A stretch of DNA of 32,000 nt from Candidatus Saccharimonadota bacterium. GTDB lineage: Bacteria; Patescibacteriota; Gracilibacteria; Absconditabacterales; Absconditicoccaceae. The stretch covers positions 870,001 to 902,000 of the forward strand of contig JAUIDC010000001.1 in NCBI GenBank assembly GCA_030429145.1, in the 5' to 3' direction. The position numbers and the translations under genes are program-made. Numbering within the stretch: position 1 is the stretch's first letter; each line of letters starts with the position of its first letter. Shown piece by piece: positions 1 through 20,032 of this stretch. Below the pieces are notes generated by a model. That model did no database searches, was not told where the DNA came from, and worked only from the letters and a program-made list of their open reading frames with translations.

Positions 1-174
1 TGTACCACCAACAAAGATGAGAAAGTGGATGAAATTGAGCCTTCTTCTTTGCAGTCCATCGATGGCAAAGAGCAAAAAGAGGATACTCGCTATGATCAGG
101 ATAAAGCTCAAAGGACTCATGTACAAAAATGAGAAAACACATATAAATAAGGATATATGTTGGTTTTTACTCAT
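1..174 (-). CDS. hypothetical membrane protein, N-terminal part (gene runs off window start)
   Basis: ATG at 174-172 with 58 codons open to position 1. Translation MSKNQHISLFICVFSFLYMSPLSFILIIASILFLLFAIDGLQRRRLNFIHFLIFVGGT is strongly hydrophobic. Same strand as neighbours. No family recognised. Confidence 0.3.
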   Translation of the reverse strand, partial: MSKNQHISLFICVFSFLYMSPLSFILIIASILFLLFAIDGLQRRRLNFIHFLIFVGGT

Positions 175-201
175 TTATAAGGCAATTGCAACGAAAAGGG
201 A

Positions 202-1383
202 TTAGTTCTTTTTCGTTATTTTTGCAGAAAATATTTGGTCGTAGACTTGGATATCTATCTCGTCACCTGGCTCCAGTTTTTGTACATTGTCTTTCGACAA
301 GTATGCTCCTTGCTGCATGAGCAATGCATAGCCACTTTGTAGTATCTTTGTAGGAGAGCTCGCCACGATCGTATGATACCACGCATCGATCTGGACTCTT
401 GTGTGTTGCAGTAGCCCTTTTGCAGCCCTTACTATCTGTCACTGCCAGAGATCTATGTTATCTCTCATACGTATCAGTTTCTCTGTGCTGAGCGTGATGA
501 TACTATCATAGAGCACAGTAATATTTTCTTCCCACTCTTCAAGGAGTTCAGTCAACTTATATGCAGCATCTGTAGGTGTTTTTGCTCCATACCAAGCGAT
601 GTCCTGTAAGACAGTTTTATCTTGAGTATGGCCTACAGCAACGATGACCGGCACAGGCATCAGACAGATCATTTTTGCTATCTCGAAATCATTCTGCCAG
701 GCCATCCCGCTACTCTCTCCTCCTCCACGAATGATCGCTACAGCGCTAAATTGTTCACCATCTTTTATATCTGTCATAATAGTAGTTAACTGTTCCTGGA
801 CCTCTGCAATAGCATTGTTCCCGTGCATGGCACAGAGATACTCTTTGTATTCAATATTATAGCCAGATTGTGCTGCAATAGTGTAAAAATCCTTTAGTCA
901 TGCAGCATCTTGCGCCGATATGATAGCGATCTTGTATGGTGGATATGTTCGTGAAAGATATTTATTGTTATAGATTATTTGTAGTTTTTGTAATTTTTGG
1001 AGAATATCCTCTTGTTTTTTTTGCAAATGGCCGAGTGTGTACTCTGCGCTGAGTTCATTGATGATAATGCTTATCCCATAGTCTTTATGAAACGAAAACT
1101 TCCCGTAAAAGAGCACCTTTAAGCCTGTCATCTCTGAAACGTCTCTCAGTTTTGTCTCACGAAGAAACTGTGCATAGATACTCTCTTGAAAGATACACCC
1201 CTTCACCTTCGCAACGATTTTTCCCTCCTCGTCGTACTCCACGAGCTCCGCATAGACATTTTTGCCTTTTTGCTGTATCTTTAAAATCTCTGCTCTTCAC
1301 CAAAAATCAAAGCCTCAAACAACAGCCTTGAAACTTCTGTCCAATATATCGAGCAACGCCGAAAGCGAGTATTGCATTTCCAT
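202..1383 (-). CDS. xseA: exodeoxyribonuclease VII large subunit
   Basis: Joins track ORFs 439..828 and 898..1242 through in-frame TGA (898-900, 439-441, two more near the N-terminus). 393 aa. OB-fold-like N-terminus (FWGRAEILKIQQKGKNVYAELVEYDEEGKIVAKVKG). Core IIRGGGESSGMAWQNDFEIAKMI...PVPVIVAVGHTQDKTVLQDIAWYGAKTPTDAA is typical XseA. Stop TAA 202-204. Confidence 0.85.
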
Positions 1384-1433
1384 AATTGTAGTATACAAAA
1401 AAGTGACTGCAAAGCCACCTTTTTGTTTTTCTC

Positions 1434-1988
1434 TTATTGATTTTTTACATTTGGGGAGAGATCGTAGATAGATCATGAGTATGGTCCGCACCAGTCATTG
1501 GTATCGTTGAGAAATTTTCGTCACTGCACAGCACACCTGTCGGGGTCGTTTGGGTTTTCGAGTTTTGTTAACAGATCATAGGTATGTTTCGGTGAATTAT
1601 AGACTCCATAATAGGTGTATGTTCTAGTTGTTGCTCCAAATGCTACACCACCAGGAGTGTTGATCGGATCGACAGGCACAGAAGTCATATAGCCACTTAT
1701 AAACGCTGACCAACCAGTACTTGTACTATATGTATAGTGATTGGTATTGTAACTAGCTCATGCATATGGTAGCGGATATGTCGTGTTATCAACAAAGTAT
1801 ATCTCTAACGCATTATAGATATTTCTCAGATCAGTTTTTCTTTTTGTATCCCTTGCTCTCTCCTGCACAGATGTCAGTCTTGGAACAAGAGCTGCAGCTA
1901 AAATACCGATAATCACTATGACTATCAGCATTTCGATGAGTGTAAATGTTTTTTTTCTTTGCAAAAAAGTGCAGATATTATCTTTCAT
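1434..1988 (-). CDS. type IV pilin-like protein, paralog A (184 aa)
   Basis: Class III signal MKDNICTFLQRKKT/FTLIEMLIVIVIIGILAAALVPRL. Track ORF 1758..1988 extends through TGA 1758-1760 and two further TGA to TAA 1434-1436. C-terminal part carries VPVDPIN and KLENPNDPDRC motifs shared with paralogs B-D. Confidence 0.8.
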
Positions 1989-2037
1989 TAATTCTCTTTC
2001 TAGGCAAACAGATTAAAAATGCAAGTAATCAGTTCCA

Positions 2038-2610
2038 CTAAAATGAATTAGAGTGAGGAGAATACTCATAGAGTTGTGGTGTTCCTCCATAAGGTGGACC
2101 ACACGATGCATAGAAACCATTAGGCCAAAATCTATACTGCTTGACTCCACATCTATCTGGATCATTCTTATTTTCCAATTGTGCAGTGAGATCATACGTC
2201 GTACCACCGACTACATTTCCGTATAAGTACATAAAATCTCCTGTCGATCGTGGATTACTTCCTATATTGATTGGGTCAACAGGCACTGATGTAAGGATAC
2301 CTGCAAAACCGCTAATTCGCATAGAAACACCATCATTGCTACCAACATAACAATAAGGACATCATGCTCCTCCATATCATGTGGGAAATGCGTCGTTGAC
2401 CGTAGTGGCGTAGAAACCATTATCAGTAAAGTGAATCTCGTTTGCATTATAAATCGTTCTCAAATCTGTTTTTCTTTTACTGTCTCTCGCTCTTCCTTGT
2501 ATTGCTGTCAACCTCGGAACAAGTGCCGCTGCCAAAATACCAATAATCACAATGACTATTAGCATCTCTATCAATGTGAAGGAGTTCTTTATGAACTTAT
2601 AAGCACTCAT
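2038..2610 (-). CDS. type IV pilin-like protein, paralog B (190 aa)
   Basis: MSAYKFIKNS/FTLIEMLIVIVIIGILAAALVPRL. Track ORFs 2377..2610 and 2038..2322 are in frame and join via TGA 2377-2379 and one more. Motifs VPVDPIN, QLENKNDPDRC. Ends YEYSPHSNSF, stop TAG. Confidence 0.8.
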
Positions 2611-2632
2611 TTCATGTAAGTAGTATAATGAA

Positions 2633-3199
2633 CTAATGTCTATTTATATTGAGTGAGTCAAATGCATAGGTCCACTTAGTCGCTGGATAAGCCACCTGTG
2701 GACACCATTGTAATCAATTTATAGGATCGTTAGCATGTGGATAATGATAGTTTTTTAGCTGACACCTATCTGGATCTTTTTGATTTTCTAATTGCGCAAA
2801 TAGTTGATAATCAGTCAGACTACCTGCCCCATCTACACTATAGTAGTAATAACTATACCCTCCTGTAAGCCTATGGTTGTCATTATTAATTGGGTCTCTG
2901 GGAACAGTTCCCAAAATTGCCTGTAGTCCAGTAATCCGATTAGCTGCACTGGTACTATGTGACTGTTGCAACATTAATTGATTTGCATAAATCCCATTAT
3001 CTATTTTATGAATCTGATTTGCATTATAGATATTTCTAAAGTCTGTCTTACGCTGTGCATCTCTGGCTCTTCACTGAATTGAGTTCAATCTTGGCACCAA
3101 AGCTGCCGCCAAAATACCTATTATCACGATGACAATAAGCATTTCTATAAGCGTAAAAGCTGTAGATTTGTTTCGAGAAAAAAAGAATGCGCTATTCAT
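2633..3199 (-). CDS. type IV pilin-like protein, paralog C (188 aa)
   Basis: ATG 3199. MNSAFFFSRNKSTA/FTLIEMLIVIVIIGILAAALVPRL. In frame with track ORF 2714..2974 and extended through TGA 2714-2716 to TAG 2633-2635. Motifs VPRDPIN, QLENQKDPDRC. Confidence 0.75.
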
Positions 3200-3256
3200 T
3201 GCATTCTTTTTAAAAAATTCTGCGAACAATACAAGAAGAAATATGCTCTCATACTT

Positions 3257-3826
3257 CTAAAATGAATTTGAATCTGGAGAGTACTCATAAATAAGTGGTG
3301 AATAGGTACCTGAAAATGTTCCAATGCACCAGGAAGTTTGTCACGTAGAAGAAAATTGAAACAAGTAATCTTTCAGTTCGCATCTGTCAGGATCTTGAGA
3401 ATTTTCCAACTTTGTCGTTAGGTCGTATGTATTACTAGGAGAACTGTATACATTATGATATACATAAGAGTATCAACGATCTATCCTCCATGGTTTAGTA
3501 TCATTATTTATTGGATCCACAGGAGCAGACGTCATATAATTTCATAAACCAGTCATCCAACCTCATTGATTCACACTATAAACCTTGTCAGAAGAATTAA
3601 TTGATCCTGTTCATGGTGTAAGATAAACACTATTATCTAGAAAATACAATGCAAGAGAATTATAGATTGTTTTTAAGTCTACTTTTCTTTTTGTATCCCT
3701 TGCCCTTCCTTGTATAGATGTCAATCTTGGAACAAGTGCTGTAGCCAAAATACCAATAATCACAATGACTATTAGCATCTCTATAAGCGTAAATGTTTTC
3801 TTTTTCGAACGATGAAACTTATACAT
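3257..3826 (-). CDS. type IV pilin-like protein, paralog D (189 aa)
   Basis: MYKFHRSKKKT/FTLIEMLIVIVIIGILATALVPRL. Track ORF 3611..3826 extends through 5 in-frame TGA. Motifs APVDPIN, KLENSQDPDRC. Ends YEYSPDSNSF like paralog B. Stop TAG 3257-3259. Confidence 0.8.
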
Positions 3827-3904
3827 AACACAAAGAACTACAATACTTCTTCCATAGGTTTATCAATTTCCGTAGGTCATGCAACTCTTTTTTGTTAAGA
3901 GAAT

Positions 3905-3932
3905 ACAAAAAAGTCATCCATGAAGATGACTT
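3905..3932 (-). terminator. rho-independent terminator downstream of pyk
   Basis: Perfect 8-bp stem AAGTCATC/GATGACTT (3911-3918, 3925-3932) with a 6-nt loop. On the minus strand it is followed by TTTTTT (plus A-run 3907-3912). Lies 40 nt after the pyk stop. Confidence 0.6.
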
Positions 3933-3972
3933 TCCCTTATTACAACATCATATAATTCTTTGACAGTTTCAA

Positions 3973-5397
3973 TTATATATCCTTGAACTTATATAGCTCT
4001 ATACCATTGATCAAATGGCCATTGCTTTCATGGTCGATCACGTCGCTGGCGTGCATGATAAGGATTTTGTCATCGAGTGAGATATTACCCTTGAAGATGA
4101 TACGGATGATCTCTTTTCCGATACGTTTTACATTTTCGTAGTCGAATGTGTTAGAGATCTTATAACCTTTCACTGCCCAAAGAAGATTAAGATACTTATA
4201 GGTGTCGTCTGTCTTCGTAAATGCAATGATAGGTATGCTTGGTTTCAATGTCGAGATTCTTCCGACAGAGTATCCATTGTCAGTAAATGCGATGATAGCT
4301 TTGATATCAAGCTCTTTTGATATTCTATATGCATTGTAGATGATATAGTCAGTGATCTGTTTCTCTGCACCGATATGTACATCACCCATAGAGAAATTTG
4401 TTGCTAGGTCAGCCTGGTATTTGATGATAGCATTGTACAGTCCTGTGATAGCCTCGATTGGGTCGTCACCAATAGCTGTTTCACTTCCAAGCATAAATGC
4501 ATCCACTCCACTCTCTAAATATCCCTTCACCATGTCAGGAGCAAGCGCACTCGTAGGATCTTTTTTCCCAACCTTTTTCGTAAAGTTTGCGGAAAGGATA
4601 AATGGCTTACCATATTTATTACAAAGGTTTACTACTTTTTCTTCTGTCATACTCTTTTTGGTAGTCAACTCCTCCATCTCGCCTTTCTTGAGAAGGATAC
4701 CGTCAGACGCATTGATAATCTGATCGATATTATCAACAGCTTCTTTCGTCTCAATTTTTGATATTACTTTCACATCTTTACCTTGATGCTGATACAAAAA
4801 CTCACGGAGTTCCAAAATATTATTCTCATCTTTTACATACGAAACGACAAGAATGTTCACTCATGCCTGGATACCCCATACAATATCTTTTTTATCTTTT
4901 TCTGTAATAAACGGTAATATCGGTGTATAGTTCTCAAAAGTGATTTTCTTATTTGGCTGAAGTGTTCCTGCTTGCTTTACCTTACAGATCAAGTGCTCAC
5001 CTTCATTTTTCTGCACCTTCAATACGACGTCAGACTCAGCAAAACTGATCTCCGCCCCAGTAGACACATCTGCAATTTCAGGATAGTCGATGAAAAGAGT
5101 ATTTTTTTGCTCATCTTGATATTCTGAATATTCGATACGAATCTCATCTCCTTTTTTGAATTTCATATTGTCGACATTCTTTGATCTGATCTCAGCACCC
5201 TTTGTCTCAAGTACTATGGTTTTACTATTATCTAGCTTCAAGATAGTATCAATATATTTCTTCTTCTGATCATCGAATCCATGTGAAAGATTGATGCGGA
5301 ATACATCAACGAAGTTGATTATTTTTGAAAGCACCGTTTCCTTTGCTAAAGCAGGACCAACAGTTGCAATAATTTTTGAATAGTGGAATTGTGACAT
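3973..5397 (-). CDS. pyk: pyruvate kinase (474 aa)
   Basis: Track ORFs 4861..5397 and 3973..4860 are one frame joined by TGA 4861-4863 (...WGIQA-G-VNILVVSYV). N-terminus SKIIATVGPALAKETVLSKIINFVDVFRINLSHG and MLGSETAIGDDPIEAI are pyruvate kinase signatures. Stop TAA 3973-3975. Confidence 0.9.
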
Positions 5398-5430
5398 GTG
5401 TGTTTTTATAAGTTTGAGATAATAAAGGGT

Positions 5431-5613
5431 TTATTGTTGGAGAGATTTGGCAAGATTTTTAGAAGTATCGGTTTTTACTCTATTAGTTTTTTTTGTAACA
5501 CTTCCTAGTGTTTTGAAGAGTCTTAGAGCTGCCTTCCCCATATCCATGGGTCTTCTTCTTGATCACCAGCTAGCCAATTCTTCATCGGTCAATGATTTGC
5601 GAATTAATACCAT
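5431..5613 (-). CDS. small basic protein, 60 aa, function unknown
   Basis: ATG 5613, one in-frame TGA, TAA 5431-5433. Translation MVLIRKSLTDEELASWGSRRRPMDMGKAALRLFKTLGSVTKKTNRVKTDTSKNLAKSLQQ. Fills the gap between two minus-strand genes. The competing plus-strand ORF 5447..5635 is antisense to the local gene direction. Confidence 0.35.
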
Positions 5614-5642
5614 CCTTGGAACTGATATAGAATAAATAGAAT

Positions 5643-6977
5643 TTATCTTCTCTTTCTCCTTGGTCTTTTCGCTCATCACACTTTTCTGTCAGGCTTCTTG
5701 CCCTTCATCATCGTATAGCGAAGATCATCATTATCATCATAGATGTTATCATCAGTGAACGACTCTTCTTCCATATCGCTATGATCACGGAGGCTTATAC
5801 TGACACCGAGTTTTTTCTCGAGCGCCTGTATCTTTTCTCCACCTTTACCAATAATTGCACCTCTTTCTGTTTCATCAACATAGACCGTGATACTTCCCAG
5901 ATCATTGACCACTACTGTCGCGTGTACGTTTAACTTTTTCTGGAAGTAATCTTGGAGGTAGTATGAAGCAAAAGTTTCAACAGGATTTCCTCCCTTCTCC
6001 GCTTTCATAGCATCGACCTTTGCTACTTCCATCACGACGATCTGTTCGCCAAACGTATAGATTTCGTACATCAGTTTCTTCGTCACCATAGATGAGACCT
6101 GGATAACTGGACGAGCAAGATCTTCTGACATCATACCATGTGGTACTTTGACTACAAGATCAAGCACCAATACTTCATCTATCTGTCATGCTTTGATAAA
6201 GACAACCGTATCTATCACCTGTGGGATGATACCAAGTTCAACATGTCACACAAAACGTTGGATACTATCAACTGCTTTGGTAGCATGTGTTACACCGACA
6301 AGTCCGATACCAGTGAGTCTGAGGTCTGCGAAGAGTTCAAAGTCATCCTTATTTCTCACCTCATCATAAAATGCAGCATCGGGGCGAGAAAGGAGTAAGA
6401 TATCACGAACTTCATCATGTCCTCCGTAGGTGAATGAGTACTGCACAACAGACTCAGGCACCAAGAGATCACGAGGTGATTCAAGCGTCTTTACAATCTT
6501 ATTAGCACTGCTATACTGCTCTGCGAGTGCTTGTGCAAAAGTTGTTTTTCCTTCACCCGGAGAACCAGATATCAAGATACCTTTTGCTTTGTTCGTAAGA
6601 TGATCAGCAAGATCTTCATCCAGCTTATAATCTGCAAAAGTTAGTTTTTTCACTGGCCTCACTACAGTCATCTCTAACCCATCGGAAAGTGGTGGATAGA
6701 CAATCACGACTCTGTATGGTCCAAGCTGAAGTACTTTAGACAATGGCTTATCGATCTCTAGAAATTGCTCTTTTCCCGATTGCGTCTCTTCGAAAAGTTT
6801 GTGTATGAGCTCTTTGAGTTGTTGTTCTGAAAAAACCTCTTTGCTCAGCTCTGCCTCTCGTGCACCAGGGCGTCACTTTTTTTTCAGCACAGGAATTCAC
6901 TCTTTAAAGTGAACTGACATCACTCACTCTCAAAAATATTGATCTAGGGCGCTGCCCGTAGGTGTAAATCACTGCAT
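5643..6977 (-). CDS. PilT-like ATPase with C-terminal KH domain (COG1855 family)
   Basis: Track ORFs 6246..6743 and 5676..6170 join through TGA 6246-6248 and 6191-6193. Walker A GSPGEGKTTFAQALAE. Also ESPRDLLVP, LLLSRPDAAFYDEVR, VGVTHATKAVDSIQRF, KVPHGMMSEDLARPVIQV and KH-like GAIIGKGGEKIQALEKKLG. C-terminus reads through TGA TGA at 5673-5678 to TAA 5643-5645. Start is uncertain (ATG 6977 or 6920). Upstream in-frame stop at 6999-7001. Confidence 0.8.
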
Positions 6978-7158
6978 AGAGTAAACCTTTTTCAGGCCTT
7001 AGTAAATGAACGCGTTTATATTGATTTCTCGCCAAAAATCAATGAGAACTGATGAGTAAGCCCTATAAACAATTGGTTACAAGCCAAAAATCAGGGTATA
7101 AAATATAACTGAGCTACTATGGAGAGACACTGCGATCAGCAATGTCTTTTTCGTTTGA

Positions 7159-7180
7159 GCGGGTTTGTCTAGCAACAACT
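7159..7180. repeat. 22-bp direct repeat, copy 1 (candidate att core)
   Basis: GCGGGTTTGTCTAGCAACAACT, identical to 25594-25615. Followed 4 nt later by CAAGACTAAAA (7185-7195), which also follows copy 2. Confidence 0.6.
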
Positions 7181-7494: not shown

Positions 7495-7518
7495 TTTTAT
7501 ATCGTCCACCTGCCAATC

Positions 7519-8511
7519 ATGAAAACAGGCAAGAATGAGACTCCAGGATATTATGCAGTCATACCAGCTCCAGTGTTATTTGCGAGAAATATCAATGACA
7601 CGCAAAGAGTCTTATATGGCCACATATCTACTCTCTGCAATAAAAACTGAGAGTGTAATGCTGGGAACGAGTATTTTGCCAAAGCGATGAGCAAGTGAAC
7701 GGAGAAAAAGAAGGAGAAGGAGAAAGAGAAAATGAATGCCAAGTATATCAGCTCTCTCATAAACGATCTGAAAAAGAAATGATACATAGATACGAGAGTA
7801 GAAAAGGATCTATGAAACCAAAGGATAATCACTCTCACAGACCTGCTAAAGTTAAAAAAAGAAGTGATCAAGACTATCCAGAAAAAACAGGATAGCTATC
7901 CAGAAAAATCTGGAGAGGGGTATCCAGAAAAATCTGACCAGCCCTATCCAGAAAAATCTGAACATAATAATACAAGTGATAATAATACAAGTAGTAATGA
8001 TATTACAGAGCAAGGCTCTGACGATGAAAAATCTGATGAGGAGAAACCAAAAGAATATGGAAACAAGGAAATAAATGATCTCATAAAAAAACTCAGAGAA
8101 AAAGCATGAGAACTATGAATAGTTTACTCAACAGATTGAGAGAGAAACTTCTCTAAGCACATACTTTGAGCAAAAGACTTCTGACAACTAGCTGACGCCG
8201 AGAAAAAATCCAGAACTGCATTGGCGCTATGGATCATGGAGCTAAGTATGCAATACTGAGGAGATTATCCAGCATGATGACCGAAAAAGATCTATCTGAG
8301 ACGTTCAACAATACTCAATGCATACAAGCTCGAGAAGATAAAATTGAAATCAGCAGATCCAATATCTTACTTCATAGAAAACGTAGAAAATCGAACAATC
8401 AAACAGGATCTCATAAAGCGATACGATGGAAGGAAAGACAAAAAGCTACCAACCAGCGAAAATACAGTCAGAGCAAAATATGATGAAATGCTCGAAAAAA
8501 TGAAAAAATAA
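7519..8511 (+). CDS. replisome organizer / DnaD-like HTH replication initiator (330 aa)
   Basis: One frame (pos mod 3 = 1) from ATG 7519 to TAA 8509-8511 with 12 in-frame TGA, verified codon by codon. N-terminus YAVIPAPVLFARNINDTQRVLYGHISTLCNKNGECNAGNEYFAKAM...ISSLINDLKKKGYI matches the phage replisome-organizer winged-helix pattern. Central YPEKS repeats are encoded by iterons. Confidence 0.65.
7875..7960 (+). repeat. four direct iterons inside the initiator gene (candidate phage origin)
   Basis: TATCCAGAAAAA(A/T)C(A/T)G at 7875, 7897, 7921 and 7945. Spacing is 22/24/24 bp. The last three are identical 16-mers (TATCCAGAAAAATCTG). Confidence 0.55.
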
Positions 8512-8546: not shown

Positions 8547-9311
8547 ATGTTTGAAAAAGAAGCACTCAAAGAATTGTATGATACAATGCCAGTCCAATGG
8601 AAAATACAGAATAACTTTTCTAACGATACCAAAGCAATGTGTGTCGCCTATATCGATGCGCGTGATGTCATGGATAGACTCGACAAAGTAGTCTGACAAG
8701 ATTGTTGGAAAAGTGATTTCCGTCAAGAATGAAGCAATACTATCTGCACTATATCAATCAAGATCGATTGAGAATGGGTAGGCAAATCAGACACATGATC
8801 ATCAGGGAATGGAACAGAGAAAGAAAAGTCTCTAATGTCAGATGCTTTCAAGCGTGCAGCAATACACCGAGGGATATGACGCTTTCTCTACGACATGGAG
8901 AAAAAGATTATCAAAGTGAAAGTAGAAAAAGACTGAAATAGGAAGAAGACTACCCCGCTTGATGACCAATGAAATCAGATCTGGGATCTCACAAAATATA
9001 TCAATGAAAATACAAATAATACCTCGAAGAATGCAGAAGCATGAACTGGTGCGAAATGAACGGACTGATCAGGTGATACGGAGAAAGCAACTAGTGCACA
9101 AGTAGATTTTCTCACAAAGATGTTCAAGAAGCACCATATATCAGACGAGGTAAGGGATGCCTTCATCAAGAATAAGTTCAAAGTAGAGAGTATGTCTGAT
9201 ATACCAAGACATAGGATATCAAAACTCCTCGATGAAATGAAATCTAACGACGAATTTGCAAAACAATTCTGACTGTCGCAGACCAGCGACTCCAATTCTC
9301 CCAGTCAATAA
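8547..9311 (+). CDS. Rad52/Sak-type single-strand annealing protein (254 aa)
   Basis: ATG 8547 to TAA 9309-9311, 10 in-frame TGA, verified by coordinates. AYIDARDVMDRLDKVVGQDCWKSDF...ICTISIKIDGEWVGKSDTGS...EKEKSLMSDAFKRAAIHRGIGRFLYD is the Rad52-family core pattern. Confidence 0.8.
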
Positions 9312-9582: not shown

Positions 9583-10248
9583 ATGAAACTCAACGACACA
9601 CTCAAAGACATTAACGAAGCAATAGAGATGCTCCAGATGATAGACGATGCAGAATATGTTGCTGCAAACGGGCTATCAGAAGAAGAAATCAATCAGTTCA
9701 AAAAGGATCTCGATGAGACCATCAAAAAAGACAAAGAAAATATCCAACAGATTGCATGATATGTAATCCACAAGAGACAGGATGCCGAGATGATGGTGAA
9801 CGGTGCAAAAGCAGAAATTGCAAGATTGCAGGATGTGGTATCTAGTCACGAGAGCAGAGTCAAAAAAGCAGACAGGACTCTCCTATGGATAATGCAGACA
9901 TTATACTATGCAGATATAGAGAAGAATGGGAAAGCAAAATTGATCACTCCCCTAGCGACTATTAACTATACAAAATCTGATAAGATGAAAGTAGAAGACC
10001 ACGGGATCACAGAATTACCTCACTTTCTAACAAAATGGACGGTGAGTGCCGAGGTAGATCCTTCAAAGAAGGATCAGCTCATGGAGCTAGGCTTTGAGCC
10101 GACACTACAAACAACGAGTCTAACTGACGTAAAGAAACGATACAAAGATCTCTCTCCAGAGGATCAGGAAAAACTCAAAGGGAAAGGTATCTATATCGAT
10201 GATACCCCCTCTATAAAAATCAAAGGAGCAAAATCCGACAAGGAATAA
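9583..10248 (+). CDS. Siphovirus Gp157-like protein (221 aa)
   Basis: ATG 9583, in frame with track ORF 9790..10248 via TGA 9757-9759. Coiled-coil N-terminus, then AEIARLQDVVSSHESRVKKADRTLLWIMQTL...GKAKLITPLATINYTKSDKMKVED...LP.FL. This pattern matches Gp157 proteins, which usually sit next to phage annealases. Confidence 0.6.
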
Positions 10249-11703: not shown

Positions 11704-12285
11704 ATGCAGGATTATAGCTTCCATATCCAGAAAGCTGGGTATGACCAGAACAAATGAAATATAATTGAAATCAAGTTATTCAATATGAAGGATGAGATCT
11801 GACCAGAATATACATTCCACATATCTGTCCGTGACTCATGACTTTTCAACGCAGAGCCAAGCCTAGACTACCGTTTTAGATGATACGTAACTGAAACAAA
11901 GAGAGACGCATCTGACATAGTTCTCAAGTTGAGAGTATCTACAGAAGCAATCATATGGGTTTTGCAAAATTATACTAGGTTCTGACCTGAGGCTGCAATC
12001 ACTCTATCAACCGCCAATAGCATGCAAAAAGATATAACAGTCAGCATAAAATCAGTTGATGCAGAAGAAAGCAATGATAAAGACGATATGGTCAAAGCTG
12101 CAATGGAAATAAAAGTACACGGGAAAGCATCTGCTACTATGTTACAGAGAAATCTTAATCGATGATTTGCTCAGGCATCTCGTATCATGGATATGATAGA
12201 AGATGCTGGATTGGTTTGACCTCTTGAGTGATCAAAGCCGAGAGAGATATTCCATGAAAAACTTGATGAGTATATCAATGGATAG
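11704..12285 (+). CDS. protein with C-terminal FtsK-gamma (KOPS-binding winged helix) domain, no motor (193 aa)
   Basis: ATG 11704 to TAG 12283-12285, 8 TGA, verified line by line. C-terminus DDMVKAAMEIKVHGKASATMLQRNLNRGFAQASRIMDMIEDAGLVGPLEGSKPREIF matches the FtsK gamma consensus (..aSiS.lQR.l.iGYnRAariid.mE..GiVgp..GsKpReVL). Confidence 0.7.
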
Positions 12286-12682
12286 CCCACTATATGTCAA
12301 GATAACATTCTCGTGTCGTTGACTGGATCATGATTTTGACAAGCGACAAAAGTGTGAAGTATGCAATGATGCACGACGACAAGACGTAGACCATGTATAC
12401 TGACGTGAGTGACCGTTGATGCACGATCCGCGCTATATGATGTTGGTATGTAGGAGGTGTCATGCAAGAAAGTGATGAGAAGCTGAAAAGCAAAGATGCA
12501 TAGAAATCATAGCTGAGAGACTCCGATGGGAGTTTACAGACGAGTTTTTATCTGTTATGTATCATGTCTATGGAAAATATACGGTTGGAACTAGTGGATT
12601 GATCATATACGAAAGTGATGCTATCTTTGAACAGACAGAAGTATCGGATATCGAGGAAATTCTATGATCATTGTATGGTTAG
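12278..12682 (+). CDS. HNH endonuclease (134 aa)
   Basis: ATG 12278 overlaps the previous stop (ATGGATAG). CRGLDHDFDKRQKCEVCNDARRQDVDHVYGREGPLMHDPRYMMLVCRRCHARKGG gives the Cys4 plus H-N-H arrangement. TAG 12680-12682. Confidence 0.75.
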
Positions 12683-12771: not shown

Positions 12772-13917
12772 ATGAGAGTATTATCACTATTTGACGGTTG
12801 TGCTATGGCCTATCAAGCACTCAAAGTAGCAAACATATCAGTGGATAAGTATTACGCTAGTGAGCTTGATACATTTGCCATAAAGATCGCTATGAAAAAT
12901 CATCCAGACATTATACAGCTATGAGACGTCACTCAAGTCTCTGGAGATATGATTGATTGACCGATCGACTTATTGATCTGATGATCGCCATGTCAGGATC
13001 TCTCAATAGCAAAGAAGGGGAGAAAATGACTTCATGGTGAAAGGAGTTGATTATTCTGGGAGTATATAAGGCTTCTCAAGGAGCTAAAACCTAGACGGTT
13101 CGTACTCGAAAATGTAGCTAGTATGTCGAGAGACAGCATGCTGATCATTACTCAGACCATATGATACTACCCTATTATGATCAACTCTGCACTGCTAACC
13201 GCACAACAGAGAAAAAGATACTACTGGACAAATATACCAGGCATATCAGAACCAGATGATATGGGGATACTACTCAAGGATATTATCGAGGACGGCTTCA
13301 CGGAGAGAGACAAATCACTCTCTCTGACTGCTACCTACTCGAAGTGATGAAGTATGAGAGACTATGAGAAAAAACAAAGACAACTCATATTCACGAAACC
13401 TATCAATATCTGAAATATCAATCCATCCGGTAGAGGCATCAATGGTAACGTATATAGTTTTGAGTGAAAATCTCCCGCACTCACTACAAATAAATGAGAA
13501 GGTATAAAAGTTGCAAATACTCCTATCAGAGTGGGACAACTATGAAAGTGATGACAAGGAGATCGTGTATATAGCCCAACATGAAAAAGCGTATCCCTGA
13601 GTGCAAACGGATGAGGTATGTGAGCAAAAACATGATTATATGATATGAGCATCATCCAAAAAGGCAGATGATTTAACAAGTGAGGAGAACATACAGAGAA
13701 GTCGCCTACTGTATCATGTAACTCACGACAAGAAAACAATAAGCTCAAAGTTTGAGAACACATAAGAAAGCTAACGCCTATAGAATGTGAAAGACTACAG
13801 TGACTACCCGACAATTACACTGAGTGAGTCAGCAACTCTCAAAGATACAAGATGATTGGAAACTGATTTACTGTACCAGTAATCGCACACATTTTATCAC
13901 ATATACCTGATGCATAA
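12772..13917 (+). CDS. dcm: DNA (cytosine-5)-methyltransferase (381 aa)
   Basis: MRVLSLFDGCAMAYQAL (motif I). LLIGGSPCQDLS is motif IV, with both Gly encoded by TGA at 12979-12984. Also FVLENV, QRKRYYW, TPIECERLQGLPDNYT and GNGFTVPVIAHIL. About 25 in-frame TGA. TAA 13915-13917. Alternative GTG start at 12721. Confidence 0.9.
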
Positions 13918-13919
13918 AT

Positions 13920-14486
13920 ATGAAAAAGATCATGTTTTTCGATACTGAAACTACTGGATTATCACCTCTCACGGACTCTATCATACAGTTTGGTGCAATC
14001 TATGGATCTCTGGATGAGACCACAAACGAATTCTACGAAGAAAGAATTATCAATCAGTTTATCAACACAGACGTAGAGATATGAGAGAGAGCCTTTGCGG
14101 TTCACGGCATATCAAAAGATAAGATCTCAAATTTCGGGTATATGGAAGAATATATCAAGGAGATCCTGGCATACCTCAGAAAAACGGATCTCATAGTAGG
14201 ACACAATCTCAAGTACGACCTCGGCATGCTAGAATGAGAATGTCGTAAGCTAGATATCAAGAACGCCACTGATGGACTATCAACATTTTGTACCATGGTG
14301 TGATCGACACATATATGCAAGATACCTCGTGGAGGCGGATCATATAAGAGTCCGAAACTAGTCGAGCTTCATCAATACCTCTTTGGAAATGCTTTTGATG
14401 ATGCACATGATGCATTGGCCGACATAAAAGCGACAAAGGATTGTTTCATGGAGTTGATGAAACGTGGAGAAATACCAAAGTTCTAG
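13920..14486 (+). CDS. DnaQ-like 3'-5' exonuclease (188 aa)
   Basis: Exo I FFDTETTGL, Exo II LIVGHNLKYDLGML, Exo III HDALADIKAT. ATG 13920, TAG 14484-14486. Confidence 0.85.
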
Positions 14487-15956: not shown

Positions 15957-16220
15957 ATGATAACTCTAAAAGTAGACTGAGTAAACACTCCAGAAATGAG
16001 TGTAGATATACAAAATGAATGAGAATTAGAAAAGTTTTTACTAACGGTTGGCTACTCTATGGTAGAAATGACAAAGGCTCTATGAGAAGATGGAACAGTG
16101 GAGGAAAAGAAAGAAGTGTGTCTTCGAATGCTGGACACAATAAAGAGTGCTGTATATGCAAAGATGAGAGCGGAATGAATTATACCAAAAGATGAGGTAA
16201 GTCTATCAGAGATAATGTAA
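15957..16220 (+). CDS. hypothetical protein (87 aa)
   Basis: ATG 15957 lies 22 nt after the TAGTTTTAC junction motif. 4 TGA. TAA 16218-16220. Confidence 0.45.
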
Positions 16221-16255
16221 GATTAGCTTTACCTGTATTATATAAGATACGACCA

Positions 16256-16735
16256 ATGGCAGAGAAAAAGATATTGGACGTATGTTGTGGTGGACGCATG
16301 TTTCGATTTGACAAATCGCATCCGCTCTGTCATTTCATGGATATGAGGTCACTACCAAAATGATCAATATCATCACGTCCAGACTTCCATATCGATCCAG
16401 ATGAAATATGAGACTTTCGCGACATAAAAGCCGATGATAAATCATATAAAATAGTTGTCATGGATCCACCACATTTGCAAAAGCTATGAGACAATAGTTG
16501 GATGGCAAAAAAATACGGCAGACTACCTAAAACCTGGAAAGAAGATCTACAAAAGTGATTTACAGAATGCATGCGTGTACTTGATGACTATGGTATATTG
16601 ATATTCAAGCGAAATGAGCACGAGATCCCACTTGCCAAGTTAATGAAACTATTCCCGCAGAAACCGATGATCTGACATCGTACGGGGAAAAACAACAAGA
16701 CCATATGGCTAATATATCTAAAACCTCCTACATAG
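16256..16735 (+). CDS. small SAM-dependent DNA methyltransferase, DPPH motif (159 aa)
   Basis: KILDVCCGGRMF (SAM-binding loop) and KIVVMDPPH (amino-methyltransferase motif IV). ATG 16256 to TAG 16733-16735, 5 TGA, verified by coordinates. Confidence 0.7.
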
Positions 16736-16765: not shown

Positions 16766-17119
16766 ATGAAAGCATCACAAGAAGATATCGACAAGAGCGT
16801 CGATGACAATATCAGATTTATACGGTGATTTATCGATTACCGATATAATAAACGAGTCGAAAATACTCCTCGAAAGAGCCTCCCAACTGACCCAAATATA
16901 CGGTACGAGTCAACAAAGGAAGACCTTGCTAGATACTACCAAAACTACAAAAAACTCATGGTGATAGAAAAAAACACACTATCGCTCCATGCTATACAAA
17001 CATTTATGGAGGAGGAGGTGCTCGTGAAGGGCATCTATGAAAAGTGGCTTGCAGTCAGTTTCCCACAAGACTCCGTAAAACCGCAGAAAAAAGAACAAGA
17101 ATTCATCACAGACACATAA
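16766..17119 (+). CDS. hypothetical protein (117 aa)
   Basis: ATG 16766 to TAA 17117-17119, one TGA. An earlier ATG at 16746 is in another frame and stops after 33 codons. Confidence 0.45.
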
Positions 17120-17142
17120 TCTTTTATAACTATTGAACTACT

Positions 17143-17313
17143 ATGACTAATACAGCAGAAGAACTAACAGACGAACTAATGAAGATATTCACTCAGGCTA
17201 TGGCCAAGCAGTACAAACTCAAATACATAGCATTTAATCCAGAGAATAACCCGAAGGAAAAAATCCAGAAGGTTATAGAGACAGCTCTTAACAGAGACAA
17301 TAATCATACATAG
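17143..17313 (+). CDS. hypothetical protein (56 aa)
   Basis: ATG 17143, TAG 17311-17313. Translation MTNTAEELTDELMKIFTQAMAKQYKLKYIAFNPENNPKEKIQKVIETALNRDNNHT. Confidence 0.4.
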   Translation: MTNTAEELTDELMKIFTQAMAKQYKLKYIAFNPENNPKEKIQKVIETALNRDNNHT

Positions 17314-17342
17314 ATTTTATCTTTATTATGAAACAACTCATC

Positions 17343-17630
17343 ATGAAAAAGTTGATACCAGTCGAGGATCATGTATTGATCAAACCAGTAGCAGAAGACA
17401 CAACCGCTAGCGGACTTCATACTGGAGATAACGATCCTGAAAAACCAAGCAAGGGAATAGTCATCGCGGTAGGAATAGGAAAACAACTCGAAAACTGATC
17501 AATGTCTATAATGCAGATAAAAGAATGAGACACCGTATATTTTGAACACTACGTAGCCAAGAAAGTGGATGTTGATGGAGAGAGATTTTTCCTCGCTCGT
17601 CAACATGACATAACAGCAATACTCGCATAA
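17343..17630 (+). CDS. groES: co-chaperonin GroES (95 aa)
   Basis: MKKLIPVEDHVLIKPVAEDTTASGLHTGDNDPEKPSKGIVIAVGIGKQLENGSMSIMQIKEGDTVYF... fits the GroES fold pattern. Two TGA encode Gly. An in-frame alternative ATG lies at 17328. TAA 17628-17630. Confidence 0.85.
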
Positions 17631-17661
17631 CTCTATTTTATCCTATCAACTATTACTACTC

Positions 17662-19326
17662 ATGTCAAAAGAACTACTCTACTCAGACAAAGCTCGCAAG
17701 AAGGTATTTGCTGGTATCAGCAAAGTTGCATCAGCAGTAAAAGTAACAATGTGACCAAAGTGACGCAATGTCATGATCGGTAGATCGTATGGATCACCAA
17801 AGGTAACTAACGACGGAGTATCTGTCGCGGAAGAAATAGAGCTCTCTGATATCGTAGAAAATATGTGAGCCTCTCTTGTGAAAGAAGCAGCTGCAAAAAC
17901 TAACGACGAAGCTGGAGACGGAACAACATCAACTGTTGTATTAGTCGAAGCGATCGCCAAGGAATGACTATCATATGTAACTAGAAAGAACAAGCTGTTC
18001 TCACTTCTCGGAGTAGTGCCTATGCAAGTCAATCCTTTCTCTCTTGGAAGATGATTTCAAAAAGCGTTGGTAGAAACCAACAAAATACTCAGATCTATGT
18101 CTACTAGTATCAGTCTCGACAACAAAGACGAGTTGAGACAGATCGCGACGATCTCTGCACAGGACGAAGAAGTCGGAGACATTATAGCAGAGGTCATGCA
18201 TGAAGTAGGAAAGGATGGACTCATTACTGTCGAAGAAGGAAAGACTAACGGAGTAGAAAAAGATACAGTGAAAGGGATGCAGTTCAACAATGGGTATCTT
18301 TCTCCTCAGTTCATCACTGATCTCACCAAAAACGAAGCGTCAATCACTAATCCTGACATTATCATCACAGACAAAAAAATTGCAATGTTCAAGGATATCC
18401 TTCCACTACTTGAGTTATTAGCAAGAGAGGGAAGAAAGGATCTCATAATCATTGCAGATCAATTCGATAGACAAGCGCTAGATACAATTGTGATCAACAA
18501 AACAGTCGGCAAACTCAATGTCATTGCTATCAATGCACCTGATGCAGGATCGAGAAGGGCGGAAGCACTCAAGGATATAGCAGCCGTCACTGGTGCAACA
18601 GTCATTTCATCGGAGAATGGCCTGACATTCGAGAAAGCAGATCTCAGCGTAGTCGGGAAGGCCGACAAGGTCACAAGCACCAAAGATAGAACAACAATCA
18701 TCGGCGGAAAGTGAAGTCCCGAAGCTATCGAGTCTCGCCTACAGTCGATAGAAGCTGAACTTGCAGACAATACTGGTGGACAGTTTGAGGAGTCAAAACT
18801 CAAACAAAGACGCGCTAGACTCGTCGGTGGTATATCTGTTCTCAGAGTCGGAGCTGCAACAGAGACAGAGATGAAAAACAAGAAAGATAAGATCGAAGAT
18901 GCTCTTAATGCGACTCGTGCAGCTGTCGAGGAAGGTATCGTTGCTGGTGGATGATCTGCATTCGTAAAAATATCGAAGATGCTCGAACTGTTTCAAGTAG
19001 AAGACAATGATGAGCAAATAGGTATTGATATCGTAAGAAAGGCTATACTCTACCCTGCCATGCAGATTGCAAATAACGCAGGATATGATGGAGACATGGT
19101 GATCGAGCAACTCCAACTCAGAGGACGTACAAGAGAAAATATTGGCTTTGATGCTAAGACTGGAACATTCAAGAACATGATCCGTGCTGGTATTATTGAT
19201 CCAGTGAAAGTCCTCAGAACTTCATTGGAAAATGCTGTCTCAGCAGCATCAATGCTACTGACTACCGACGCATCAATTACTGTATCGTCAGATGAAAAAG
19301 CGAACCAGCAGATGCCAGGTATGTAG
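17662..19326 (+). CDS. groEL: chaperonin GroEL (554 aa), divergent
   Basis: Track ORFs 18067..18714 and 18979..19326 are in frame with ATG 17662. 7 in-frame TGA all fall on conserved Gly: VTM-G-PK-G-RNV at 17752/17761, ENM-G-A, KE-G-L, GR-G-F, GGK-G-S and AGG-G-S at 18952. GDGTTS and [12 protein letters not shown] are present. Stop TAG 19324-19326. Confidence 0.95.
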
Positions 19327-19354
19327 TAGATTTATTTCTATTACAAAAACGCAT

Positions 19355-19609
19355 ATGATCAAAAAGAATGTCAGAGTACATATTGCCAGGAGAAGCGACG
19401 GGAAACTTACAGCAGCATATAGACTCCCTACTCCAAATAATAGTGATCACCATCCCGTAGATATAATAGAGATCCCAGAAGATCAGACTGAGGCTATAGA
19501 GCTACTGAACAACTATATCATGTCTATGCTCAAATGATTGTTCCCATCTGGGTATAGGTTCATCATACGTTACTACACGGAAATATGACGTACAGAAAAT
19601 GAAATATAA
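19355..19609 (+). CDS. hypothetical protein (84 aa)
   Basis: ATG 19355 (the part of track ORF 19292..19537 downstream of groEL), extended through 2 TGA to TAA 19607-19609. Confidence 0.4.
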
Positions 19610-19808
19610 CACTGAATAATACAGCAAAATAATAGGTGATTTTTTGAGGGAGGAATTCTATGATAGGATTTTCTCCCCATGATTTCATCTGAAACTACAA
19701 AAAAAGCGATAACTACTATATATCTTAAATACACAACTGTCAATTGTAATTACTCGATCGATTACTATACAAGACGCAAGATCTCCTTCGTGAGATCTTA
19801 AAAAAGAC

Positions 19809-19822
19809 TTTCTAGCTAGAAA
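19809..19822. promoter_or_regulatory. perfect 14-bp palindrome (operator-like)
   Basis: TTTCTAGCTAGAAA abuts TGTCAA (19823-19828), which reads as TTGACA on the minus strand. Lies in the 420-bp non-coding control region. Confidence 0.4.
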
Positions 19823-19951
19823 TGTCAATACTATATGTTGTGTAAGTAGAGTATAGCAAGAGCCAAAACACAAACAGAAAACACAAGGGATCATGATATC
19901 TTTTTGTGTTTTTTGTATCTTGAAATGTGTTGAGGCGTGTTTTACTAGCCC

Positions 19952-19980
19952 TTGAAAAAACAGAACACTTGTTCTATAAA
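19952..19980 (+). promoter_or_regulatory. sigma70-like promoter with GAAC-N4-GTTC palindrome in the spacer
   Basis: TTGAAA (19952-19957), a 17-nt spacer, then TATAAA (19975-19980). The spacer contains GAACACTTGTTC (19963-19974). Sits 53 nt upstream of ATG 20033. Confidence 0.45.
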
Positions 19981-20032
19981 AGACTCAGAGGCAGGTGAAC
20001 AAAAGTGATTTATTTGATACACAACAGTTGAT

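Follow-up and report, generated by a model that had tools for sequence, protein, structure and literature searches.

Pairs of chaperonin and co-chaperonin genes are an established type of auxiliary gene in phages, and the groES-groEL pair considered here, encoded in a 32,000-nucleotide stretch of contig JAUIDC010000001.1 (positions 870,001 to 902,000 of the forward strand; hereafter the window), adds an example rather than a new principle. In the marine virome, GroES was found on 133 of 337 viral GroEL contigs, with 63 in the order GroES>GroEL (Marine et al., 2017, ISME J, PMC5649160); 23% of viral GroES proteins have a polar or charged residue in the tripeptide of the mobile loop, and the most variable sites of viral chaperonins line the cavity (PMC5649160). 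Flavobacterium phage vB_FspM_immuto (Immutovirus, ~160 kb) has annotated, adjacent GroES and GroEL genes, and PHROG holds families for both (phrog_3188 and phrog_5725), which the window proteins match. The sequence-only reading of this DNA had regarded a full phage-borne pair as unusual, a view that these precedents do not bear out.

The window pair resembles the virioplankton operons in that chaperonin and co-chaperonin occur on a phage genome in canonical order, and in the polar tripeptide residue that is often found in viral GroES. These operons belong, however, to uncultured marine viruses that use code 11, whereas the window GroEL clusters with the GroELs of code-25 bacteria, is carried by a temperate prophage, and bears a unique insertion at helix D. 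Affinity to the described viral GroEL clades (virioplankton, Immutovirus, Vibrio phages) was not found: the closest GroELs in IMG/VR are ~40% identical, that of immuto is 42% identical, and all 291 INPHARED records with GroEL matches lie below 48%. Immuto and the large Vibrio, Bacteroides, and Cellulophaga phages with GroEL are moreover of 160-195 kb and lytic type, unlike the carrier of the window pair, an integrase-bearing prophage in a host of candidate phyla radiation (CPR) type that reads TGA as glycine.

Two further systems are instructive. Pseudomonas phage EL gp146 is GroES-independent, and in the presence of ATP its double rings come apart into single ones (Bracher et al., 2020, PMC7185714). 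It is a phage homologue of GroEL with altered ring-ring contacts, as the window GroEL is by its sequence, and a precedent for a remodelled behaviour between rings in phage chaperonins. It has, however, no co-chaperonin, does not bind GroES, and has been termed a 'distant homolog', whereas the window GroEL has its own groES adjacent and is close to bacterial GroELs (48% identity to Thermus thermophilus-class sequences); it is thus not of the co-chaperonin-independent class. T4 gp31 and RB49 CocO are co-chaperonins that a phage supplies to adapt the folding cage to its own proteins; gp31 acts together with the GroEL of the host and cannot be recognised as a Cpn10 from its sequence, whereas the window GroES is a genuine Cpn10 (81 bits) with a phage-encoded GroEL as partner. 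The prophages of Absconditabacteria, all of code 25, have been catalogued without mention of chaperonins (PMC10746230), and chaperonin cargo is unmentioned in the CPR-phage papers searched (PMC10746230, PMC12911398).

The pair, its setting, and its genetic code

It is likely that a temperate tailed prophage, residing in an Absconditabacteria-type genome of ~0.94 Mb that uses code 25, carries its own groES and groEL as the final large cargo genes of an early operon for replication, recombination, and methylation, and that this pair was captured, has co-evolved, and folds phage proteins. Both genes are fragmented when translated with table 11 and intact under code 25, and the complete pair of 95 and 554 residues proposed from the letters holds. 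GroES belongs to Cpn10 by a profile score above the cut-off and by the position of its gene directly 5' of groEL; GroEL belongs to the Group I chaperonins by a profile score above the curated cut-off (238 bits) and by its full-length alignment to solved GroELs, of which 4v4o_A is the best match (E = 5e-145, residues 1-546). An in-frame ATG at 17328, upstream of the groES start, would yield 100 residues; the start at 17343 (M6 of the longer reading frame) agrees with the N-termini of host GroES, with the public gene call P0246 (95 aa), and with the spacing of the upstream motif described below. The genes are closely packed, much as had been claimed (15-35 nt): 14 nt precede the ATG at 17328, 31 nt separate groES from groEL, and 28 nt separate groEL from the small open reading frame (ORF) at 19355.

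The pair lies at the distal end of an early operon that runs on the plus strand from ~7.5 to 21.3 kb and faces convergent late genes on the minus strand. Upstream are early genes, including two methyltransferases, a kind of gene already recognised from the letters and here supported by Pfam and PHROG matches, with small ORFs between the second of these and groES; downstream are the integrase, also as first read, a holin, and a tail fibre. The phage DNA can be followed past the end of the window on a Logan contig of the same sample, L029, which matches window 27045-32000 exactly and runs on into proteins of 936 and 718 residues, an SU10_adaptor, and a major capsid protein (Phage_capsid_4, L029 2326-3285). 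With early genes upstream and integrase, holin, fibre, adaptor, and capsid downstream, the pair is located within a genuine tailed prophage with an integrase, and its placement in a phage early operon is supported; the SU10-type adaptor suggests a podovirus. The order is the canonical GroES>GroEL, with phage genes on both sides on contiguous DNA. Of the features of a temperate prophage, integrase, holin, fibre, capsid, adaptor, and the junction with host DNA on the left are seen, with the second copy of a repeat described below being internal to the phage; the prophage seen so far spans at least ~35 kb (window 7.2 kb to the equivalent of 41.9 kb).

The sequence-only reading had considered that this might instead be the cell's own chaperonin operon inside mobile DNA, and had proposed a search for a second copy. 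The same 936,577-bp contig in fact encodes a second, canonical GroEL, P0002 (545 aa), which is 59% identical to the prophage GroEL; it retains 53 of 53 invariant columns and a GMGGMM tail, has a mean clade identity of 67%, and falls inside a subclade of 13 members. Also on this contig are pyruvate kinase (P0121, 100% identical to the window translation), the 1186-residue virion-module protein (P0241), and the GroES (P0246) and GroEL (P0244, a code-4 translation) of the window. In relatives of the host subclade with long contigs (L010, L011, L012), groESL lies in a non-phage housekeeping locus, pheT, rpoD, ligA, UDG, coaE, groES, groEL, and on to gidB. Since P0002 is on the same contig and the locus of the relatives is free of phage genes, the window pair is an additional, phage-borne copy and not the cell's only one: it has phage neighbours in place of the ligA-UDG-coaE-groES-groEL setting, and it is not the sole groEL. 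The cell's-own-operon alternative is thereby rejected.

The groEL gene contains seven in-frame TGA codons, all read as Gly, and no TAA or TAG across its 554 codons. The TGA codons at residues 31, 34, 69, 102, and 131 align with Gly of solved GroELs (in GPKG, NMG, EGL, and RG), and those at residues 31 and 431 fall in Gly columns of the clade alignment; the best-named homologues are from Absconditabacteria and Gracilibacteria. As TGA read as a sense codon restores the genes and faces Gly, the code is 25, as in these groups. Tools that use table 11 are thus blind to such genes, a point of practical use. The share of TGA among Gly codons is 0.17 in groESL and 0.18 in the flanking host genes, as against 0.39 in the other phage genes (groESL against other phage genes, p = 9e-4). 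Phage genes taken together also differ from the flanking host genes (39% against 18%, p = 4e-6), the share being highest in the Rad52 and FtsK-gamma genes (65-67%) and in the C5 methyltransferase (58%).

Conserved and remodelled sites of the chaperonin

The host groESL (P0002, and P0005 on a 1.1 Mb contig) and the window pair have in common the fold, the gene order, the code, clade residues, and an (N)TTTAT signal upstream. Core motifs reported for the prophage GroEL, among them GDGTTS, are present; all 24 residues compared at the ATP site (GDGTT, D52, D87, D398, GGG at 414-416, D495, and others; numbering as in E. coli GroEL, with a reference that agrees fully with PDB chain 4pkn_G) correspond to those of the clade or of E. 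coli, and the glycines of the hinge are likewise kept. The prophage GroEL keeps 50 of the 53 columns that are invariant in the clade, and deviates at 13 of 101 columns conserved to at least 98%, including the otherwise invariant L276I, F295A, and K300A. Departures from invariant or near-invariant residues of the 120 clade sequences are clustered, at the inter-ring interface, at the apical face that binds GroES and substrate together with the cavity loop, and in the C-terminal tail. The host GroELs differ from the window copy in that they have no insertion, have a GGM tail, carry Arg at K105 and Lys at E461, keep Y203 and GFGDRKK intact, and are encoded in a housekeeping neighbourhood. The tail of the prophage GroEL ends in QQMPGM, without the GGM motif, as the sequence-only reading had it, whereas host copies end in GMGGMM; a GGM-repeat tail is typical of Group I GroEL, though not universal.

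An insertion of about 13 residues had been proposed after KEGL, and it amounts to exactly 13 residues, N110-Q122; the first six residues of the string then quoted (SYVTRK) align to RYIRSG of the host and are not inserted. No residues occupy this site in any of the 125 other GroELs. The insert is hydrophobic and lies at the end of helix D, directly after the equivalent of G110, here Lys. An AlphaFold2 model of the protein (mean predicted local distance difference test score (pLDDT) 82.6, predicted template modelling score 0.73) prolongs helix D to residue 116, by about two extra turns, with low confidence at this point (pLDDT ~57). In GroEL, helix D (G88-A109) and the K105-A109 contact carry the negative cooperativity between rings, and the ring-ring interface is stabilised by R452-E461 (PMC5941174). 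At the equivalent of K105, 117 of 120 clade members have Arg and the prophage GroEL has Ser; at that of E461, 118 of 120 have Lys and the prophage GroEL has Asp. Thus, by sequence, both inter-ring sites are altered, the left one (K105/A109) from R to S, with the insert in addition, and the right one (R452/E461) from K to D. This remodelled interface probably alters inter-ring allostery or ring stacking.

At the apical face, seven of the nine residues of the hydrophobic set (Y199, S201, Y203, F204, L234, L237, L259, V263, V264) are kept; Y203, which is Tyr in 120 of 120 clade members, is replaced by Gln, and the equivalent of V264 changes from Leu to Ile. In addition, E257 is replaced by Gln, and the cavity loop K277-K286, KAPGFGDRKK in the clade, is changed, with DAGSRRA in place of GFGDRRK. 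In GroES, aligned to 16 host GroES sequences, the mobile loop keeps its conserved Gly, and the tripeptide is L-H-T (SG-LHT-GD) as against I-V-L or I-I-T in the host proteins. The LHT loop, together with Y203Q, E257Q, and the cavity-loop changes of GroEL, argues for co-variation of the two partners. As judged from its residues, the prophage GroEL looks like a constrained, working ATPase with re-tuned surfaces for partner binding and ring-ring contact, and not like a decaying copy. An orthogonal system, in which GroES with the LHT loop would bind only the phage GroEL, and in which the insert, the changes at K105 and E461, and the loss of the GGM tail would abolish or rewire stacking to give a single ring or an altered allostery, is conceivable, if doubtful. 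Such a pair would represent, in the phage of an ultra-small CPR bacterium, a naturally evolved and GroES-dependent parallel to mitochondrial Hsp60 or to the engineered mutant SR1.

The closest match to the prophage GroEL is 59-60% identical, and no relative above 60% was found in a search of 5.8 billion proteins, in IMG/VR, GTDB genomes, JGI metagenomes, and INPHARED, or in an exhaustive HMMER search of 1.84 billion representatives. On average it is 55% identical to 118 clade members; the clade has 69% among itself, with no member's mean below 61%. In a neighbour-joining (NJ) tree it branches at the base of the whole code-25 clade, with a branch of 0.388 as against a clade mean of 0.293 (sd 0.047). 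The apical domain is the most diverged, with an identity of 0.505 as against 0.73-0.81 among host copies. The prophage and host copies nevertheless share the clade-specific residues N50, M30, Y105, and VNPF, and the prophage GroEL leans to the host's own subclade by +3.2 points, compared to +0.5 to +1.6 for outgroup controls, which suggests an origin near the host but is not decisive. The comparison with host and phage copies that the sequence-only reading had called for thus places the protein on the stem of the code-25 clade and away from the viral GroELs.

An apparent second occurrence of the prophage GroEL was rejected: the cluster representative through which it was reached (P0245) is an unrelated peptide of 38 residues, and its contig (L033) has no GroEL. 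As P0245 represents the cluster of P0244 at 90% identity, the prophage GroEL is hidden from representative-based searches, and other missing self-hits may have the same cause.

Gene content, borders, and signals of the prophage

Features of the window, with the matches on which they were assigned, are collected in the table.

Table. Features of the prophage and of the chaperonin pair (window coordinates).
Feature	Coordinates	Strand	Basis and remarks
Left host-prophage junction zone, copy 1 of the 22-nt repeat GCGGGTTTGTCTAGCAACAACT	7159..7180	.	Putative att core
Replication-initiation protein (HTH_36)	7519..8511	+	Pfam HTH_36; PHROG replication initiation families, E = 1e-12
Rad52/Sak-type single-strand annealing protein	8547..9311	+	Pfam Rad52_Rad22, 35.9 bits (cut-off 20.3)
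Siphovirus Gp157-like protein	9583..10248	+	Pfam Sipho_Gp157, weak, E = 5e-4, under gathering score
FtsK-gamma domain protein	11704..12285	+	Pfam FtsK_gamma, 61 bits
HNH endonuclease-like protein	12278..12682	+	Pfam HNH, weak, E = 0.003; gene call from L024
C5 cytosine DNA methyltransferase	12772..13917 (public gene call starts 12664)	+	Pfam DNA_methylase, 155 bits
DnaQ/RNase T-type 3'-5' exonuclease	13920..14486	+	Pfam RNase_T, 70 bits
Second DNA methyltransferase	16175..16735	+	phrog_954, 207 bits
groES (Cpn10), 95 aa	17343..17630	+	Pfam Cpn10, 81.2 bits (cut-off 21.1); phrog_3188, 62 bits
groEL (Cpn60), 554 aa	17662..19326	+	Pfam Cpn60_TCP1, 238.5 bits (cut-off 34.3); phrog_5725
13-residue insertion N110-Q122, 'left-site' inter-ring contact beside the K105-equivalent (Ser)	17989..18027	+	Alignment of 126 GroELs, residue mapping
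Small ORF after groEL, ATTTAT at usual distance upstream	19355..19537	+	No family match; 3' end uncertain (reaches TGA codon)
Conserved non-coding region, marks cargo slot, parts chaperonin cassette from Cys-rich gene and integrase	19620..20030	.	~78% nt identity to L030 21000-21470 (reverse strand)
Cys-rich 123-aa protein	20033..20404	+	32% identity to L030 115-aa gene upstream of integrase; no Pfam match
Tyrosine recombinase / phage integrase	20395..21288	+	Pfam Phage_integrase, 90 bits; phrog_1, 114 bits
325-aa phage protein	21530..22507	-	24% identity over 256 aa to L030 326-aa gene by integrase, collinear; no family match
Holin-like protein	23485..23937	-	phrog_6384 holin, E = 1e-7; weak Pfam Phage_holin_3_3
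Family-2 glycosyltransferase (GT2), 566 aa, moron-type cargo	23855..25555	-	Pfam Glycos_transf_2, 74 bits; phrog_13126, 162 bits
LamG-domain protein	25652..26359	-	Pfam Laminin_G_3
Collagen-like tail-fibre protein	26361..27386	-	Pfam Collagen; PHROG tail-fibre families to 126 bits (LamG and fibre region); C-terminus homologous to L030 626-aa fibre
1186-aa large virion-module protein	28313..31873	-	Self-match P0241 and homologue in L030

A distant, collinear phage contig, L030, has the structural genes, fibre, holin, a 326-residue gene, and the integrase, with early genes that converge from the other side. Its slot that matches window 17343-19537 holds a cold-shock-domain gene (L030 21544-21744) in place of groES-groEL; the end of the early operon, directly 5' of the conserved non-coding region, may be a variable position for 'chaperone cargo'. 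The proteins that flank this non-coding region are only 22-32% identical between the window and L030. The region contains several hairpins, a promoter-like site on the minus strand (TTGACA-17-TATAGT, 19743-19715), and a site on the plus strand (TTGAAA-17-TATAAA) before the Cys-rich gene and the integrase; its plus-strand fold has a z-score of -3.98, and an Rfam search of window 17000-21500 gave nothing significant. It is a candidate for a regulatory switch, a non-coding RNA, or an attP region.

The left flank (window 1-7000, minus strand) is host DNA, with xseA, four pilin paralogues, pyruvate kinase, and a KH/T2SSE-type ATPase. Two relatives, in which pyruvate kinase is 87-89% and the ATPase 77-78% identical, keep the synteny ATPase-pyruvate kinase-xseA, and neither has the element; homology to the relatives L025 and L027 stops at about window 7044. 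The type IV pilin or pseudopilin paralogues stand in tandem between pyruvate kinase and xseA (1434-3826, minus strand), with 69-78% nucleotide identity in blocks of 171 nt. As pyruvate kinase is followed directly by xseA in the relatives L025 and L026, the pilin array represents a genome-specific insertion or expansion.

The 22-nt sequence GCGGGTTTGTCTAGCAACAACT forms a perfect direct repeat, the second copy of which (25594-25615) lies 18,435 nt from the first, against a chance expectation of ~3e-5; this copy is located between the genes for GT2 and the LamG protein, where it overlaps a terminator hairpin of the minus strand. Either an att core, with a third copy lying at the right end of the prophage, or a regulatory element that recurs could explain the repeat. 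A reading of the two copies as attL and attR of a self-contained 18.4-kb integrative element without structural genes was rejected, because the genes that follow copy 2 on the right are collinear with L030 across the repeat and run on into adaptor and capsid.

The motif TTTTAT, first described as a junction motif of the phage ORFs, is real and enriched (62 copies in the window against 35.6 +/- 5.7 expected), and precedes 11 of 27 phage start codons at a distance of 15-23 nt, those of groES and groEL among them; examples are at 7495, 8521, 13892, 14487, 16737, 17122, 17315, and 17636 on the plus strand and at 22527, 23507, and 31892 on the minus strand. It is not, however, a mark of phage genes, as the host groES and groEL of relatives (L009-L012) carry (N)TTTAT at the same spacing, and a phage-specific role was rejected. 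NTTTAT appears instead to be a gene-start signal of the whole lineage, replacing a signal of Shine-Dalgarno type.

Among the late genes, that for GT2 lies between the holin and tail-fibre genes, has no counterpart in L030, and is a candidate gene for lysogenic conversion that would modify the host surface. The tail-fibre gene has repeats of GYTGYTG type, in nine copies of a ~119-nt unit with 61-72% identity; two independent Logan contigs stop inside it (window 26772 and 27045), showing that it breaks short-read assemblies. The 1186-residue protein has no Pfam or PHROG match, and a search of 5.8 billion proteins returned, apart from the protein itself, only two homologues; on visual inspection, a pair of similar segments with YHG(G)T stands out in its C-terminal part, and these might be enzymatic domains (ADP-ribosyltransferase-like). 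Queries of IMG/VR with the capsid and the 325-residue protein found no relatives of the prophage.

Origin and role of the pair

The pair would have been captured long ago, from the host lineage or from a related code-25 bacterium, because clade-specific residues are shared, TGA usage is host-like, and there is a slight lean to the host subclade. After capture, groES and groEL would have evolved together into a matched pair that is produced at an early stage of lytic growth. As the host has just one housekeeping chaperonin, they would serve the folding of phage proteins, for instance of the capsid and of large proteins of the virion; the position in the operon and the precedents point to this role in lytic growth.

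Several observations weigh against this interpretation. The NJ placement is basal to the entire code-25 clade and the preference for the host subclade is small, which weakens the case for any one donor or time of capture. No close homologue of the prophage GroEL was found from which purifying selection could be gauged as dN/dS. The AlphaFold2 model was built on the code-4 translation P0244, in which seven Trp replace Gly, and its confidence is low exactly in the insert, so that of the proposed structure of the insertion the extended helix stands only as a low-confidence prediction. Finally, the stress gene (cold-shock domain) in the same slot of L030 fits lysogenic conversion equally well.

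Such conversion is the strongest alternative: the pair would be a moron, expressed in the lysogen, that raises tolerance of stress or heat to the benefit of the cell and not of virion assembly. The cassette lies at the distal end of the early operon beside the integrase, the corresponding slot of L030 holds another stress chaperone, the TGA usage of groESL is host-like, and the prophage has other moron-type cargo in GT2. We nonetheless regard this as unlikely, as the cassette is packed tightly into an early lytic operon (gaps of 14-31 nt), has no convincing promoter of its own (the best site has only 9 of 12 matches, no better than in shuffled sequence), and shows a heavy remodelling of the GroES-binding face, the cavity loop, and the ring interface that would not be expected for mere added folding capacity.

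That the pair is a host paralogue, an ordinary second bacterial chaperonin (groESL2) in a decayed, domesticated prophage or a genomic island, is quite improbable. Multiple groEL paralogues are common in bacteria, the pattern of the 22-nt repeat is unexplained, and the right end and the inducibility of the prophage are unverified; but the visible phage modules are all intact and collinear with an independent phage contig, the element is absent from this site in close relatives of the host, and the failure to find an orthologue in any other Absconditabacteria genome or metagenome (best 59-60%) argues against a vertically inherited paralogue. A captured copy that has lost its function and drifts under relaxed selection could account for the most divergent sequence of the clade, with 13 of 101 highly conserved columns changed and the GGM tail lost, but is most improbable given an intact ORF of 554 codons with an intact partner gene, an ATP site conserved at all 24 residues compared, retained hinge glycines, a confidently predicted fold, and changes that cluster at interfaces rather than being scattered.

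Capture of the pair and its co-evolution for the folding of phage proteins is thus the favored interpretation. What sets this case apart is the carrier, a temperate phage of a CPR host with code 25 and a genome of ~0.94 Mb, and the insertion at helix D and the inter-ring contact, which is unusual and testable. The changes concern elements whose mechanistic role is defined (helix D with K105, the salt bridge of the right site, Y203, and the tripeptide of GroES), and thus lead to testable predictions on ring stacking and partner specificity. With host and phage GroEL encoded on one contig, this genome offers a naturally matched host and phage copy on which the re-tuning of a chaperonin by a phage can be studied.

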